Source: Vicugna vicugna
Lineage: Eukaryota
Reading direction: 5' to 3'
Assembly: GCA_013265495.1 (NCBI GenBank)
Contig: MU058198.1
Coordinates: 6,959,779 to 7,023,778, forward strand
Length of the DNA: 64,000 nucleotides
This document shows positions 5,701 to 40,800 of this stretch, in pieces. The position numbers and the translations under genes are program-made. Under the pieces are notes generated by a model. It worked only from the letters and a program-made list of their open reading frames with translations. It was not told the origin of the DNA and made no database searches. The first letter of the stretch is position 1. Each line of letters starts with the position of its first letter.

Positions 5701-8700
5701 CCCACGCTCATTCTGTGAAAGAGACCCGTCATCCACTGTTCACCCTTCCCTCTGCTGTTTGGTTGATTGCGGTAGCCCCCTCACCAGTGTCCATCCTGAC
5801 CCCCCATCTCCATCTATTCACAGCAGTTGTCAGGCAATTTTCTTAACATGTCAATCAGATCAGATTGCCCCGAAGTCCCATCTTCTCCAATGGCTCCCAT
5901 TTCACTCACAGTACAAGGCGAGGCCCTCCACAACCTTGTCCCTCAGCTACTGCTCTGACCTGCCCTTTGGTCATTCTCACTTTCCTTCACCCACACTGGC
6001 TTCCGTCCTGGTCCCCGAACACATCTCTCTCAGGGCTCCTGTGCTGGTTCTTCTCCCTGAATGAAACACTTCCCAGAGAGTCACAGGGCTTCTGCTCACT
6101 TCCTTAAAGTCTCTCACCACCCAGCTGTAAATAGCAGCCCTACGTGCTCAGGTGTTTCCCATCCTCTTTACCTGACTCCATTTGTCTACATGGTTACCGA
6201 CATATCTTGTTTATTTTCTGCCTATTCTTCAAGAATGGGCTTCATGAAGGCAGGGATTTGTGTTTGTTTTGTTCACTATTGTATCTACAGCACCTAGAAC
6301 AGTGCCCGGGACATAGCAGCTGCTCCCTAACACTCGCTGATTACATGTAGTTTGATCACTCACTTTACAGAGGCACAATCTGAGACCTAGAGGTTCAAAG
6401 AGAACTGCTCAAGGTGACATGATTTTCAAGTGGTGCAGTCATGACTTAATTCTAGACCCCACAACTCTGCCCCTCCTTGGGGGCTGCCTGGTATCAGAGA
6501 GCACCTGTGAAAATGAGCCTGGCCCCAGACACCTTCACTCTGGGTCCCCCAAGGCTGGTCCTGCCCTGATTTGTCTCAAATGGTGCCTGTGAGCCAGGAC
6601 TTCTCTGACCCACCCCTCAGCGCCTAGCCCTGGGCTGGGCCCCCAGCAGTAGCCCCAGATCAGTCCTTCAAAGTTCTTGGACAGGTCCCCAGCCCCTGTC
6701 TTGAGCCTCCCTCAGATGGCTGTCCTGCCGTTCTGGCCCCTCCCTAATGTCCCCCAAACAGGGTACCTTGAGTTTCCGGGGCAGGCGGGGCCGTTTCTCC
6801 CGCTTGGGCCTCAGGGGGCTGGGCTCGGGCAGCTGCAGGGCCAGGTAGTCAGAAGGGAATGGGGGGTAGGGAGGGGAAGCCAGCTGCAGGCGGGAGTGAG
6901 GGGATGGAGATGGGAAATGGAGTGGATGGGGTGGGGGTGAAGGGAAGAAATGCAAACAGGAGAAGAATGGAAAAACAAGAGATGGTGATGAGTGTGGCTC
7001 CTGAGAACAGAGGGGAGGGGACAGCAGCAGGACTGTGTCCTGGGGTCTGCTCTCCTCAGTCACGTCTGTCCCCCATTCCTACACCAGAGAGAAGTGGGCA
7101 GCCCCGACTCACACCCCTCCAAGGGACGCTTGCTGGCCACACCCAGACAGATATTCCTGGTGTTGAGCCAGCTTCACCCTGAGGCCTGGCCCCTCTGCCC
7201 AAATGATGCCCACCTTATTCCCGGGCATTTTACCACTGACCCCAACTCACCGAGCTCAGGTATGGGGAGGGGGCCCCAGTGGCCTGAAGGGGAAACCCTG
7301 TTGAAGGAGGCAGGGAGAGGCTGGAGGGGGAGGGGGCACCTCCCAGTGGAGGGCTCCTCTTCCTGGAGGAAAGAACAGGGGAGGGGATTAGAGGCAGTGA
7401 GGAGGCCCAGGTGCCCCCCACCCCCAGAGAAGAATGATGGCTTCTCACCTCTTAGGGGCCGGAGTGTCCGACAACTTGGGTGTCCCCTCTGTCTCACTGT
7501 TATCTGAAGATGCAGTGGCATCTGAGTCTGTATGGGGAGGGCTGGTTAAGTGGGGAGTCGGAAGTCCCCGTCTACCCCAGAAGGGTATAATCTCAAATCT
7601 ATGGAAAGGCTCTGGGGACCGTGACTCCCCAGTTGGCACACGTGTGCGATTCTGGGGAGGCCCATACCTTCCTCAGCTTCTTAGAAAGTCCTTTCCAACC
7701 GACTTCCTGCTTGGGCTCCTCCATGGTAACACATTCGTCAAACACTATGTGCCAGGGTCTGAACAGGCACTTGACATTCACCGCCTCTCCTTGTCTTCAG
7801 AACCATCCAAGGAGGAAGCTGTGGAACTGGGACTTAAACCCAGGTCTCTGACTCCATGACCATTTTATGCCACTCTCTCCTTAGTCACCTCTAAACTGCC
7901 TTCAGCATTTACTCCAACCCTCACATCCAGGGTCTTGTTAAGTTACCCCTCCAATCTCTACCTTTACTCATTGCTCCCCATTCCAACTGCCACAAGGTCA
8001 GGTGACCACCATGTCAAAATCATCTAAGCAATCTCGTCTCTCCCACCACCCACGGTCCACTCTGACCCCAGGATGACCTAGAACGTAAAACTGATCACAT
8101 CCTCCCCAATGATGTCTCCCAAGGCCTGCAAGCATTTGAAGCCCTTCTCTTTTTTTTTGAAGCCCTTCTCAATATGGCCTCAACCTACCTTTCTGGTCTC
8201 CCAACTGACCTGTATTCTCCATATCACACCAATCTATTTTCTCAGAAACAAAATTTATTCCCCAGATTTGTGCCCCTATCTAGAAGGCCCACCACTCACT
8301 TAACAAATAACCACTTACATACGATACATGCCATTCCCAGTTTCTCTGCTCAGATAGATCCTTTAAGAAGCAGACTAAATGCCACCTCTCTGAGAAGTCT
8401 CCCAGAATTCCTCAGGCCCAGTTGGTGGCTGGCTCTCCCAGAACCCTCTACTCTCACATGTCATGGCTCTCCTCACTGTGCTAAGATGTCACATGTGGGA
8501 GACTCCCTGGCAACACTGTGGGCTTCTCTGGGATGTAAGTGGTGGCTTACATCTCTGGCTCTTGCTTCTCAGATTTATCCCACCCTGACCATGAACACGC
8601 TGGGTTTTCTCATGATTCCTATCCTGAAGTACCCCTTGAACAGGAAGTTAACTAAAAGACCTCCAGGAAGGAACAGACAATGAGAAGCTAGAATAAAAGC

Positions 8701-15427: not shown

Positions 15428-28981
<13,554 letters not shown>

Positions 28982-29699
28982 GGTGGCCCCTGGGGGCCCT
29001 GAGAGTGGCGCCTGACCTGGAGAACAGAAATGGGAAACTTAGAACAAAGATGGGGCCCTCAGAGAGGAAGGGGTTCCTCAAGTTTCTGCCTTCTCCTCTC
29101 CTAGTTCCCTGATGAAGGGGAGGCACTACTGAGGAAGGGCAAGGGGAGATTAGGAACAACATCAAAGCTCTAAAAAAAAATGAAGTTGCCCTAGCAACCA
29201 GAGCACGGGGGCCGAGTCCCTTGAGTCCCTAAAACTGCAGGAAGACTGGGAGCTGAGCATCCTCACAACCCCCCTCAGCCCTCAACAAGTTTTATTTCCC
29301 TACAACCCCTGCATCTCCCCACAAGAATAAAAGATTCTGCCTCTCTGCCAAAACTCCAGATCCCCAAGTGTCCTGTCCCACAAGTCCCATGCCCCAAATA
29401 TTTCCAGGTATCTTCCTATTCCCCTTGGCGTTGAGGCCCCCTCCTCCCTCAACCTCTCACACCCTGGAAGAGAGCAGGAAACAGCCAGGCCGGAGGCAGT
29501 GGAAATCCGGCCATTGTTAGAAGTGGGTACTGGCCCAGAGGGGCCAAGAGACTCGCTCTCAAAAAGGGCTAGTGACACCGTGGCAGGGAGGAGATCCAGA
29601 ATGGGAAGGACAGGGATAGAAATGGCATCTGGCTCTGGGGGCCTGTGACCTGGGCTACCTTACTTGTCCAGTCCAGTGGCATACACATCACACACAAGT

Positions 29700-32083: not shown

Positions 32084-32850
32084 CTGGTAGGGGTCACTAT
32101 GGTGCCCCAGCGCCTCCGCCTCCTCCTGGGGTCCTCCAGCGGTTCTGCCAAGCAGGGAGAGGGGCAAGGAGACCTTTCCCCTTGCCACCTCTTCCTCGGC
32201 TTTCGCCCTTCCTGAGGGGCGGGCCCGGGAAGCCTCCCCTGGAGGGGAGGGGGTGACAACCTGATCTGACCTCGCGGTCCAGTCCTCCTCCTCCTCGAGG
32301 GCGACAGTTGCTGAATCCCGGATTTCTGATTGTGGGGTCTGAACCCCAGATATCTGAACGCGGGGAGACTTAATCTGATTTCTGAATTCGTGGGGAATGA
32401 ACCCCGGATACTGGTCCACGGAGGGTCTTGAACCCCAGATAACTGAAATCCTATGAAACAGCCCCAGGTTTAGAGAGGTTGGACCCGAGTCTCGGATATC
32501 TAGAATCTGAGGGGCTGATACTCCGATATCTGAGAAGCGTGGGGTCAAGCCCGGAAATTCAGGACCGATGGGACTGAGCCCCAGGTCTTCGGCCACCGAC
32601 AGGGGGCCTACCCCGAGGACGTCCGACCGCACGGCCCCTCTCACGCCGGGGTCCGAGGGTGACAGCCCCTACTCCCGCCGCGGCCTCCTCCCTTTCCCCT
32701 TCTTTCTCCTGAGGATAGCTGAAAGCTTGTAGCTAAGGGCGGTCCCCGCGCCTTCTGTCTCTCTTCTTCTCAGTCTCAGCCTCTCTCCGCACCACAGCCC
32801 CGGTCTCGTCCCGGTCTCCCTCTCCCTCTTCCTCCCAATTCCAAGATGGA
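32084..32850 (-). other. TAOK2: TAOK2 non-coding exon 1 (5' UTR); TSS approximate
   Basis: Donor CAG|GTGAGA at 32084/32083, joined to the acceptor at 29016 (35 nt before the ATG). CpG-rich. Confidence 0.75.
32310..32595. repeat. Degenerate tandem array of about 10 units of 28-31 nt in TAOK2 exon 1
   Basis: Units such as tgaatcccggatttctga (32312), tgaaccccagatatctga (32340), tgaaccccggatactgg (32398), tgaaccccagataactga (32429). Confidence 0.7.
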
Positions 32851-33260
32851 GACCGGGCGGGAGCGCGCAGGCGCGGTAGGGACGCCGGGCCAGGAGGGGC
32901 GGGGCCCGAAAGGAAACAGCCCCGCCCCTCTCTCCTTACTGCTGCGTCCAGGGAGCTGGGCAGCAACCCAGCCAGAGTGCGCGCGCGCCCCGCCACGCGG
33001 ACCCTGGGTGGGAGGAGGCGGAGAGAAGGGCTAGTCTTGGAGGGGGTGGAGCCCAGCGCGCTGTCCGACAACTAGTGGTGGAAAGGGTTGCGGCGCATGC
33101 GCTCGCCCCGCCTTAGCGCTGAGTCTTAGCTTGTTGCTAGGGGAAGCTTTGAGGGGGCGAGGATGGAAGGAAGTAAGAGGCCATAATCTGCGCCTGCGTG
33201 CAGGGTAGAGGTTGGGAGGGGAAAGGGAACTGTCGCTGGGCGCGGAAAAGGCGGGAAAAT
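32850..33260 (-). promoter_or_regulatory. TAOK2 CpG island promoter
   Basis: GC boxes (ggggcgggg, ccccgcccc) and NRF1 GCGCATGCGC 33093-33102. Confidence 0.75.
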
Positions 33261-37800: not shown

Positions 37801-40800
37801 CCCACAAAACCGTGGACTCTGCAGGGGAGGTAAGGAGGACTTTTATGGTTGCTTTGTATACTTCTGTGTGATAGTGAATCCACAATAAAATGAATTTGTG
37901 TGTTTAAAAAAGGTCCCTACCCTCTGACTCAGTAGAAACTAACCCTAAGAAATGGATTCAAAAGAAAAATGCAAACTATACCAAATGTTTACTATAATTT
38001 CATAAAAATATCAAAAAATAGAAAAAATAAAGATGTTTAACAATAGGGAAATCATTAACAAATGACAGCCTAACCATTAACAGATCAATTTATATCCATT
38101 AAAATAATAGTGTTCTGGCCATTCAGTAATACAAAAAACATGATGTCAGAAGGCGGGAAAAGAGAAATACAAACCAGTATATACATCATAATTAGAACTG
38201 AGAAACATACACAAAATCAAATCAGTCACCAAATCCTGTCAATCCCACACTTCTAACAACGCTCTCAAATCAATCCCCTTCTTTCACACCACTGTCTTAG
38301 CTCAGTTTTTCTTATCATCTTTTTTATTGCAAACACTTCCTAACTGGTCTTTGTGCATCTGGACACATTTCTTCCAGGCAGTCAGCCAACAGAATATGAT
38401 CTTCTTAAAAGAACAACAACAACAAAATTCTACTATTTTCCTGATTAAACTATTTGTGTTGGATAAAGTCCAACTACCTTGGCTTGGCACAGGAGACTCT
38501 CCATGGGACTCTGCCTGCTTCTTCAGACCCATCTCCTGCCACTCATTCAACACTCCTTCCTCTGCACCTGTCAAACTGAACCCCTGGAAGTTCCTAACCG
38601 AGCCATTCTAATCTCTGTCTGCATGCCTTTGCATTCGCTCTTCCCTCTAGCTGGAAGGGTACATTCCTAAGCCTCCCTCAAACCTAGGCTCTAGCGCTGT
38701 ATCCTTGGAAAAGCCTGTCTTCATCATCCCTGCTTGACAGATATCTGAGTACTCCTACTGTACCTTGTGTTCTACTGCATGTGTTGAAAGGTATTTACTT
38801 CTGTTCACATCTGAATCCTCGCTAGATTGTGAGTAACTTGAGGTGAAGACCCATATCTTACAGATCTCTGTATTCCCCATGCTTGGCACATAGTAGGTGC
38901 TCAATAGTCATTGCTTACATGATGCGATCATATGTGATTACTTCTGGGGGTAATTAGATTTATTTACTTATTTATTTTTAATGGTGGTACTGAGGATTGA
39001 ACCCAGGACCTTTGGCATGCTAAGCAGGCACTCTGCCACTAAGCTATACCCTCCCCCTATATGTGATTACTTTTTACTTTGTCCTGAAGAATCTTTGATG
39101 TTACAACTTTATTTCTAACCATAATAAAAAGAACTGGGCTTCTTTGCAGAAGCAGAAATTGACAAGCTGCTCCTAAAATTCATATGGAAATTCAAGGGTC
39201 TAGAATAGCCAAAACAATCTTAAAAAAAGAACAAAGCTAGAGAACTCACATTTTCAGATTTCAAAACTTACTACAACGCTACAGTGATCAAAACAGTGTG
39301 ATACTAGCATAAGCACAGACATATAGGTTAATGGCACAGAACTGAGAATCCAGAAATAAACCCATACATCTATGGTCAAGTAATTTTCAGTAAAAGTCCC
39401 AAGACTCTTCAATGGGGAAAGAATAGTCTTCTCAACAAAACATGCTGGGACAACTGAATAGCAACTGCAAAAGAGTAAAGTTGGATCCCATCCTCACACC
39501 ATACACAAAAATTAATTCAAAATGGATCACAGGCCTAAATGTAAGAGCTAGAACTATAAAATTCTTAGGAGAAAATGTAGGAGTAAATCTTACTGACCTC
39601 AAGTTTGGCAAAGTCTTCTTAGATATGATACTAAAATCACAAGCAACAACAACAAAAAAAATAGATAAACTAGACTTCATCTCAATTAAAAACTTTTGTG
39701 CTTCAAAGCACACCATCAACAAAGTGAAAAGATAACCCAGAGAATGGGAGAGAAAATTTGCAAAATACAACATGTAAGAGGCTTCTATCTAGAAAATAAA
39801 AAAAAACTCTTATAACTCAATAATTAGAAGACAAATTATTCAATTTTAAAGATGCGCAAAAACTCTGAATACACATTTCTCCAAAAAAGAGATACAAATG
39901 GCCAATAAGCAAATGAAAAAATGCTCAATAACATTAGTCATCAAGAAAATGCAAATGAGAACAATAGTTAGATACCACTTCACACTGATGAGGATGGCTA
40001 TAATCAAAAAGACACATAATAACAAATGTTGGTGAGGAAGTAAAGAAATTAGAACTCTCATACATTACTAGTAGCAATGTAAAACAACACAGCCACTTTG
40101 GAAAATAGTCTGGCAGCTCCTCAAAAGATTAAACAAAGAGTTACCATATAAGCCAGAAATTCCACTCCTGGTATATATACCCAAAAGAAAACATATGATA
40201 ATGCAAAAACTTGTACATGAGTGTTCCTAGCATCATCATTCATAAGAGACAAAAAGCGGAAATAATCCAAATGTCAATTAACTGATGAACGGATAAATAA
40301 AATATGGAATATTCATATAGTGAATATTCTCTGGCAAGAAAAAGAAATGAAGTATTGACATGTAATACAACATGGATGAACCTTGAAAACATGATGCTAA
40401 ATGAAGAAGCCTGTCACAAAAGACCACATTTATACTAAATGTCCAGAGTAGGCAAATCTACAGAGACAGAAAGTAGATTACTGGTTGCCTAGGGTGAGAG
40501 GTTAGGAGAAAAAGGCAAGTGACTGCTAATGGGTACAAGATTTCTTTGTCAGGTAGTGAAAATGTTCTGGAATTCATTGTGGGGGCAGTTGCATGCTTTT
40601 GTGAATATACAGAAAGCCATTTAATTATACATTTTAAATGGGTGTATTTTATGGTACATGAATCATATCTCAATAAAGCTGTTACATATATTTTTTTAAA
40701 ATAAAAAGAACAGGAAAAAATGTCCCAAGTTTGTATATAACAGACACATTCCTTTACTCTTGCTCTTTGATCACAAACATGTATATACCTGGAAATACAG

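Follow-up and report, generated by a model that had tools for sequence, protein, structure and literature searches.

Some minisatellites are seeded by transposable elements. Minisatellites are defined by a unit of 10-100 bp and an array of 100 bp-20 kb (PMC10509279), and among the transposable elements, the amplification of MIR ended about 130 Myr ago (PMC5381342, which also gives GWTCRAnnC as the consensus of the B box). Hairpins recognized in mRNAs include (i) the Smaug recognition element, a CNGG or CNGGN loop on a stem, described examples of which lie mostly in 3' UTRs (PMC9893680), and (ii) the mRNA sites of TRUB1, GUUCNANNC with a 5-bp stem and a 7-nt loop (PMC5340967). In the 5' UTR of human TAOK2, an RNA G-quadruplex has been tested with a reporter that used the whole human 5' UTR (PMC5429658).

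In this study, we have analyzed a 64,000-nt stretch of Vicugna vicugna DNA (the window), which carries TAOK2 on its minus strand and, in the leader of that gene, a degenerate tandem array. The array is like a minisatellite in its 29-nt head-to-tail units, its length of 289 nt and the rare loss of a unit by fusion of neighbors; it differs in that its units are on average only 52% identical and its copy number is nearly fixed across mammals, as in a fossil and not in a variable-number repeat. Its unit resembles the B-box/T-arm segment of MIR-like heads in the window, and the end of MIR amplification fits the age of the array, but neither a core nor a LINE-related tail was detected, the B box is broken in nine of the ten units and the copies are tandem rather than interspersed. 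The G-quadruplex shares the leader with the array but lies over 200 nt upstream, and the G-runs of the array are about 26 nt apart. The reporter used for the G-quadruplex included the array, of which the passages of PMC5429658 on the TAOK2 leader contain no mention or test. The hairpin systems were tried as candidates and rejected. CNGG stands in register in 9/10 consensus units (in unit 2 it is one base off), but the probability that it is presented in a loop is at most 0.001 at all 11 sites in the window and all 17 in the consensus array. As for TRUB1, the array does offer a T-arm-like hairpin in an mRNA, but GUUCNANNC occurs in unit 6 only, in one lineage, with a 4-bp stem around the 7-nt loop, and is not conserved. 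At the level of titles and abstract openings, we found no account of the array in the literature on the TAOK2 leader, and it is apparently undescribed.

The TAOK2 leader and its array

The features of the leader are as follows.

32084..32852, minus strand: TAOK2 exon 1, 769 nt, no ATG, donor at 32084
28850..29016, minus strand: TAOK2 exon 2, 35 nt of UTR, then the start codon at 28981
32810..32836, minus strand: RNA G-quadruplex of TAOK2, tested with the human sequence, which is the same here; lies upstream of the array (PMC5429658)
32305..32593, minus strand: degenerate tandem array in the exon 1 5' UTR, 10 units by profile scan and autocorrelation
32084..32304, minus strand: strongly conserved non-coding block 3' of the array, in which a hand count over 217 nt gave 6 differences to human

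The 5' end of exon 1 was placed by eye at the equivalent of the published human 5' UTR start, 32852 (PMC5429658 supplement). The first 80 nt of the leader (32773-32852, minus strand), within which the G-quadruplex lies, are without difference to human. In exon 2, 44/44 residues are identical to the TAO2 chain 1u5q_A. That the array is within the spliced 5' UTR is supported by spliced homologues that continue from it into exon 2, and the array is also contained in the human leader sequence given with PMC5429658. The original prediction thus had the right exon, but gave the units on the plus strand; TAOK2 being on the minus strand, the leader RNA is the reverse complement of those units and has the G-run ahead of the C-run. 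All spliced homologues examined use the first acceptor of exon 2. We also observed a second AG, 5 nt into this exon (29012-29016, minus strand), which would, if used, put the open frame of exon 1 in the TAOK2 frame.

A profile scan grown from the best unit placed ten degenerate units, 28-31 nt apart, from 32593 to 32305 on the minus strand, each starting at the higher coordinate given here.

32568..32593, minus strand: unit 1, hairpin forms here, the most SINE-like unit, G-run replaced in human
32540..32565, minus strand: unit 2, weak
32509..32534, minus strand: unit 3, from the profile scan
32479..32504, minus strand: unit 4, from the profile scan
32451..32476, minus strand: unit 5, weak, without a G:C stem, its reading across species hampered by indels
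32422..32447, minus strand: unit 6, sole GWTCRAnnC match (32433-32425), which is not in the cross-species consensus
32391..32416, minus strand: unit 7, 4-bp G:C stem, fused with unit 6 in one lineage (net -31 nt)
32361..32386, minus strand: unit 8, weak, no G-run
32333..32358, minus strand: unit 9, nearest to the unit consensus and alone in having a stable hairpin
32305..32330, minus strand: unit 10, best conserved across species, no C-run arm, no hairpin

The spacings between units are 28, 31, 30, 28, 29, 31, 30, 28 and 28 nt. In 32300-32600, the autocorrelation has peaks at lags of 28, 30 and 89 nt (z 5.3, 4.5 and 4.6, respectively). The period-scanned statistic of the array was not reached in any of 2000 dinucleotide shuffles, and the array tile is the most periodic 301-nt tile in the window. 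Because the units are too worn, Tandem Repeats Finder reports only two copies (period 28, score 68). The weak units 2, 5 and 8 have leave-one-out scores of -1.8, 6.2 and 5.7 bits, and three flanking sites picked by the first profile, at 32672, 32627 and 32272, were dropped (-5.8, 0.5 and -2.3). These results confirm the description from which we started, of about ten units at 28-31 nt with spacings mostly not multiples of 3 (two of the nine are); the periodicity withstands comparison with shuffled sequence, and the example units quoted at that time are present. A weak lag-14 autocorrelation was also seen in 32330-32593 (minus strand, z 2.8), the unit resembling two half-units that each open with a UCAG-like word.

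Age, rates of change and the absence of AUG

As homologues we used mammalian protein translations of the region, searched with the open minus-strand frame and a second frame. A frameshift-aware alignment to the window was obtained for 135 of 138 proteins (the query and two unrelated matches were left out); the analysis was of 60 cluster representatives, after removal of redundant members and of four further representatives, of which one was a retrocopy, one a spliced gene model, one short and one oddly joined. A base was read only if the amino acid leaves no choice, with a correction for detectability. Cells lying two codons or less from an indel were excluded, and all rates below describe back-read translations, not DNA, from related species in a sample biased to open frames. 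HMMER over 50% representatives gave 18 proteins, most of them without a name and none recognizably non-placental; the repeat-rich P0131 and P0132 were judged unrelated and dropped. In metagenome scans, the protein search found no orthologous DNA among 598 candidate stretches, and the DNA pattern gave 18 loci, all short chance matches.

Among named homologues, the array was found in human, mangabey, loris, rhinoceros and whales, and its presence in common to human, loris and whales bears out the earlier view that it is old. The units of the window are 81-100% identical to their own cross-species consensus, while different units average 52%, and this comparison of sequences demonstrates that the amplification predates the primate/cetartiodactyl split. 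In the cross-species consensus, the identity of units 6 and 9 is 92%, a hint that a duplication or conversion took place later. Of the 39 homologues that span the array, 7 have lost 9-31 nt net. A whole unit was lost in one lineage (P0120, P0126, P0134), by fusion of units 6 and 7, and among the spanning homologues in one of 39 (P0120, net -31 nt). At 52% unit identity, copy-number polymorphism within species (VNTR) is unlikely. The bowhead whale protein P0128 is apparently a processed TAOK2 retrocopy that contains part of the array, followed by exon 2 and exons beyond it.

No large block of the exon is less conserved than the array: it has 0.12 changes per column, against 0.044 in the block after it and 0.053 in the block before, roughly three times the rate of these exonic flanks. 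The same order is seen in 32 thinned lineages (0.14, 0.048 and 0.058), and the array outpaces the block after it in 50 of 53 homologues. Compared with the first ~110 nt of intron 1 in 25 read-through proteins, a stretch which is itself not a neutral standard, the array has a similar number of changes per codon (0.297 vs 0.269) and 2.65 vs 8.92 indel steps per 100 codons. Against the human sequence, a hand count gave about 47 differing positions and 6 indels in the array (~84% identity) and ~97% identity after it. The slowest unit is unit 10, which adjoins the conserved block.

One of the two constraints seen is the absence of ATG. Exon 1 has none in its 769 nt, against an expectation of 5.9, and ATG is absent over about 1 kb (32084-33097, minus strand). 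Among the homologues, one internal Met was found in 10147 aligned codons. Changes that would make an ATG number 27.1 across the exon in mammals against 77.5 expected, and 19.3 within the array against 57.2 expected; 13 of the latter fall at one site, where neighboring changes probably prevent the triplet. Our data show that selection mainly keeps the array AUG-free. This would fit a leader read by scanning ribosomes, and AUG-creating variants anywhere in exon 1 would be the changes most likely to matter.

Origin and folding of the units

Outside the array, the segment of the window that resembles the unit most closely is the following.

7827..7852, minus strand: MIR-like SINE head, B-box/T-arm segment, 21.3 bits (next match 15.3)

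We take this head to be MIR, a label supported by its alignment with other heads in the window. It is identical to the window's unit consensus at 18/23 positions, and its score was reached in none of 60 Markov-simulated windows, with a simulated maximum of 21.2. Further SINE B-box segments also rank high in the profile scan. Four of 12 MIR heads score above the 95th percentile, two of these four being seeds picked from profile hits, and the corresponding enrichment (P 5e-4) is partly circular; with profile-independent seeds it is P 0.03 for the units of the window and 0.26 for species-consensus units. The unit consensus does not match a MIR consensus built from the window (p 0.31, 0.66), and HMMs from the window's decayed MIR copies (head plus core) gave no significant match in the exon, the best (E 0.17) being to the core part. 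No tRNA genes were found by ARAGORN. GWTCRAnnC is met by one of ten units here (unit 6) and by 0/10 in the species consensus, and the array is therefore not a Pol III promoter array. No Rfam family matched at the gathering threshold (all of 35 matches with E of 10 or less fell well short of it), in keeping with the original prediction, in which the array was not recognized as a known repeat family. The best outside match of the unit, a SINE B-box segment, goes part of the way to the transposon match that would count against that prediction. In the region 7700-7870 (minus strand), a MIR-like head runs into tail-like sequence and no core could be detected; this is apparently a copy, with an internal deletion, of what we take to be MIR. 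At 38940-39060 (minus strand) there is a young tRNA-derived SINE with an A-rich tail, which resembles the camelid SINE family.

To describe the hairpins, the mRNA-strand leader was folded with three span limits and the probability of pairing between the G-run and C-run of the same unit was read. It is 0.92-1.0 for unit 1, 0.66-0.99 for unit 9, 0.15-0.81 for units 6 and 7 and 0.22-0.53 for unit 8; unit 2 reaches 0.8 only at the 40-nt span, and units 3, 4, 5 and 10 stay at or below 0.27. In context, the own hairpin folds reliably only in units 1 and 9 and sometimes in 6 and 7, with stems of 4-6 bp. The earlier statement that most units keep a stem is overstated. No excess folding energy over shuffles was found for the whole array (z -1.04 on the mRNA strand, -1.40 on the plus strand), nor any short-range excess (z 0.4 to -1.1).

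Competing explanations and meaning of the array

We consider it probable that the array is a decayed ancient minisatellite under weak constraint, within a scanned leader. A piece of about 29 nt was tandemly amplified about ten times inside the present exon 1, and the comparison of units establishes that the copies have since decayed with little homogenization. A tRNA-derived SINE, for example MIR, may have supplied the seed in the form of its variable-loop/T-arm (B-box) segment, and we put the chances of this at about even; if the seed came from a tRNA T-arm, the G-run/C-run hairpin would be an inherited relic. Today the array would be a passive stretch of leader through which ribosomes scan to the start codon in exon 2, and we expect it to affect TAOK2 output little, if at all, and then through leader length and G-runs rather than hairpins. 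Read in this way the result is a modest one: TAOK2 is a neurodevelopmental gene, its leader would carry a fossil repeat, and the hairpin pattern would have come down from the seed of the repeat without being selected.

The original prediction, by contrast, was that of RNA stem-loops kept by selection on structure. Units 1, 6, 7 and 9 do fold as hairpins, unit 9 in nearly every setting, and of 497 pair cells across 60 mammalian homologues, 427 are unchanged, 36 have pair-keeping changes on one side and 5 on both sides, a count that under-detects G changes giving Arg codons (rates were taken from the detectability-corrected estimate). Against this, 29 cells are broken versus the 5 compensated, which gives no covariation; G-C to A-U swaps number only three, each in one sequence; the C-run shows no depletion of transversions that break pairs (0.053 vs 0.055, p 0.29); folding is within the range of shuffles; and the best-kept unit has no stem. 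With the loss of a whole unit tolerated and the array the least conserved block, selection on stem-loops is in our judgment very unlikely. The effect is on one arm only, the G-run being slow and the C-run not, which points to sequence and not to pairing as what is kept. This brings up another possibility, in which the array is a set of sequence sites with the core A-Y-C-Y-G-G-G (mRNA strand) as a putative protein site, bound either by a G-run RNA-binding protein or by a transcription factor on promoter-proximal DNA, and in which redundant copies allow drift. G-run RNA-binding proteins include those of the hnRNP H/F or GRSF1 type. Positions common to the units change less (0.106 vs 0.151, rho -0.15, p 0.03-0.04 with ATG-prone and CpG columns removed), and the G columns of G-runs are as slow as the flanks (0.045 vs 0.149 for other G in the array, p 0.003). 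Unit columns 7-17, a range picked after viewing the data, change at 0.082 vs 0.145 elsewhere, and in a phase-scanned circular-shift test p was 0.007-0.04 for a width of 11, 0.03-0.07 for 7 and 0.02-0.33 for 14. Few homologues have a changed core in units 1, 3, 6, 7 and 10 (1/43, 3/44, 0/40, 2/53 and 2/54), and the slowest unit, unit 10, has the core but no stem. However, the width-14 core is not significant once ATG-prone columns are dropped (p 0.10, 0.33), the core is often changed in units 2, 4, 8 and 9 (9/43, 10/41, 8/46 and 15/55), human unit 1 has lost its G-run, unit 10 adjoins the conserved block and the rates come from back-read translations. Our data show that the G-run core of each unit is weakly kept by selection (p about 0.01-0.04). 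The protein-binding sites that had been proposed as the other option stay putative, with a weak, unit-periodic slow core that survives controls at this level; we regard an array of such sites as a tentative alternative, with perhaps a minority share of the probability.

The two other readings concern coding and tRNA mimicry. A minus-strand frame is open for 194 codons, from 32668 to the donor, and with exon 2 would extend across the TAOK2 start; in many homologues the reading continues to the same exon-2 stop, and NCBI lists uncharacterized LOC proteins here in human, mangabey, loris and whales, not all of them in one frame. These could point to a long non-AUG upstream ORF that produces a protein and includes the array. 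But the net length of the array modulo 3 is spread 14/14/11 among 39 homologues, there is no third-position excess after the array (0.032/0.055/0.046 over all frames; the slight rise in 23 homologues in other frames, 0.019/0.036/0.044, cannot be separated from the effect of reading frame), the open frame is interrupted by a stop in human and ATG is absent. That the array is not a peptide repeat, as first suggested from its spacings, is upheld by the frame data; we think a translated product highly improbable and the NCBI proteins probably prediction artefacts. Nor do we expect the units to act as tRNA mimics, that is as putative TFIIIC B boxes or TRUB1 T-loop substrates. The likeness to SINE B-box segments and the match of unit 6 to both GWTCRAnnC and GUUCNANNC speak for such a role, but the B-box match is confined to one unit in ten here and to none in the consensus, the loops are mostly of 4-6 nt, and the stem of unit 6 has 4 bp against 5 at TRUB1 sites (PMC5340967), which leaves mimicry as a similarly slim prospect.

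One could also combine origin and function, in that a SINE T-arm/B-box fragment, amplified tenfold, might have been exapted as a spaced, redundant platform for a putative G-run-binding protein tuning TAOK2 translation or localization. Constraint would then be visible only as slow cores because redundancy hides it. We hold this to be an unlikely but conceivable extension. If the cores do bind protein, the array would be a testable control element for the dosage of TAOK2, the 16p11.2 autism-linked kinase, and a case of SINE-fragment exaptation via tandem amplification. Returning to the decayed minisatellite that we favor, the strongly conserved parts of the leader are the blocks beside the array and not the array itself. 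The block 32084-32304 is far better conserved than the array and has no coding signature, with a short-range folding z of -1.6 to -1.7; this block is a better candidate for a regulatory element than the array.
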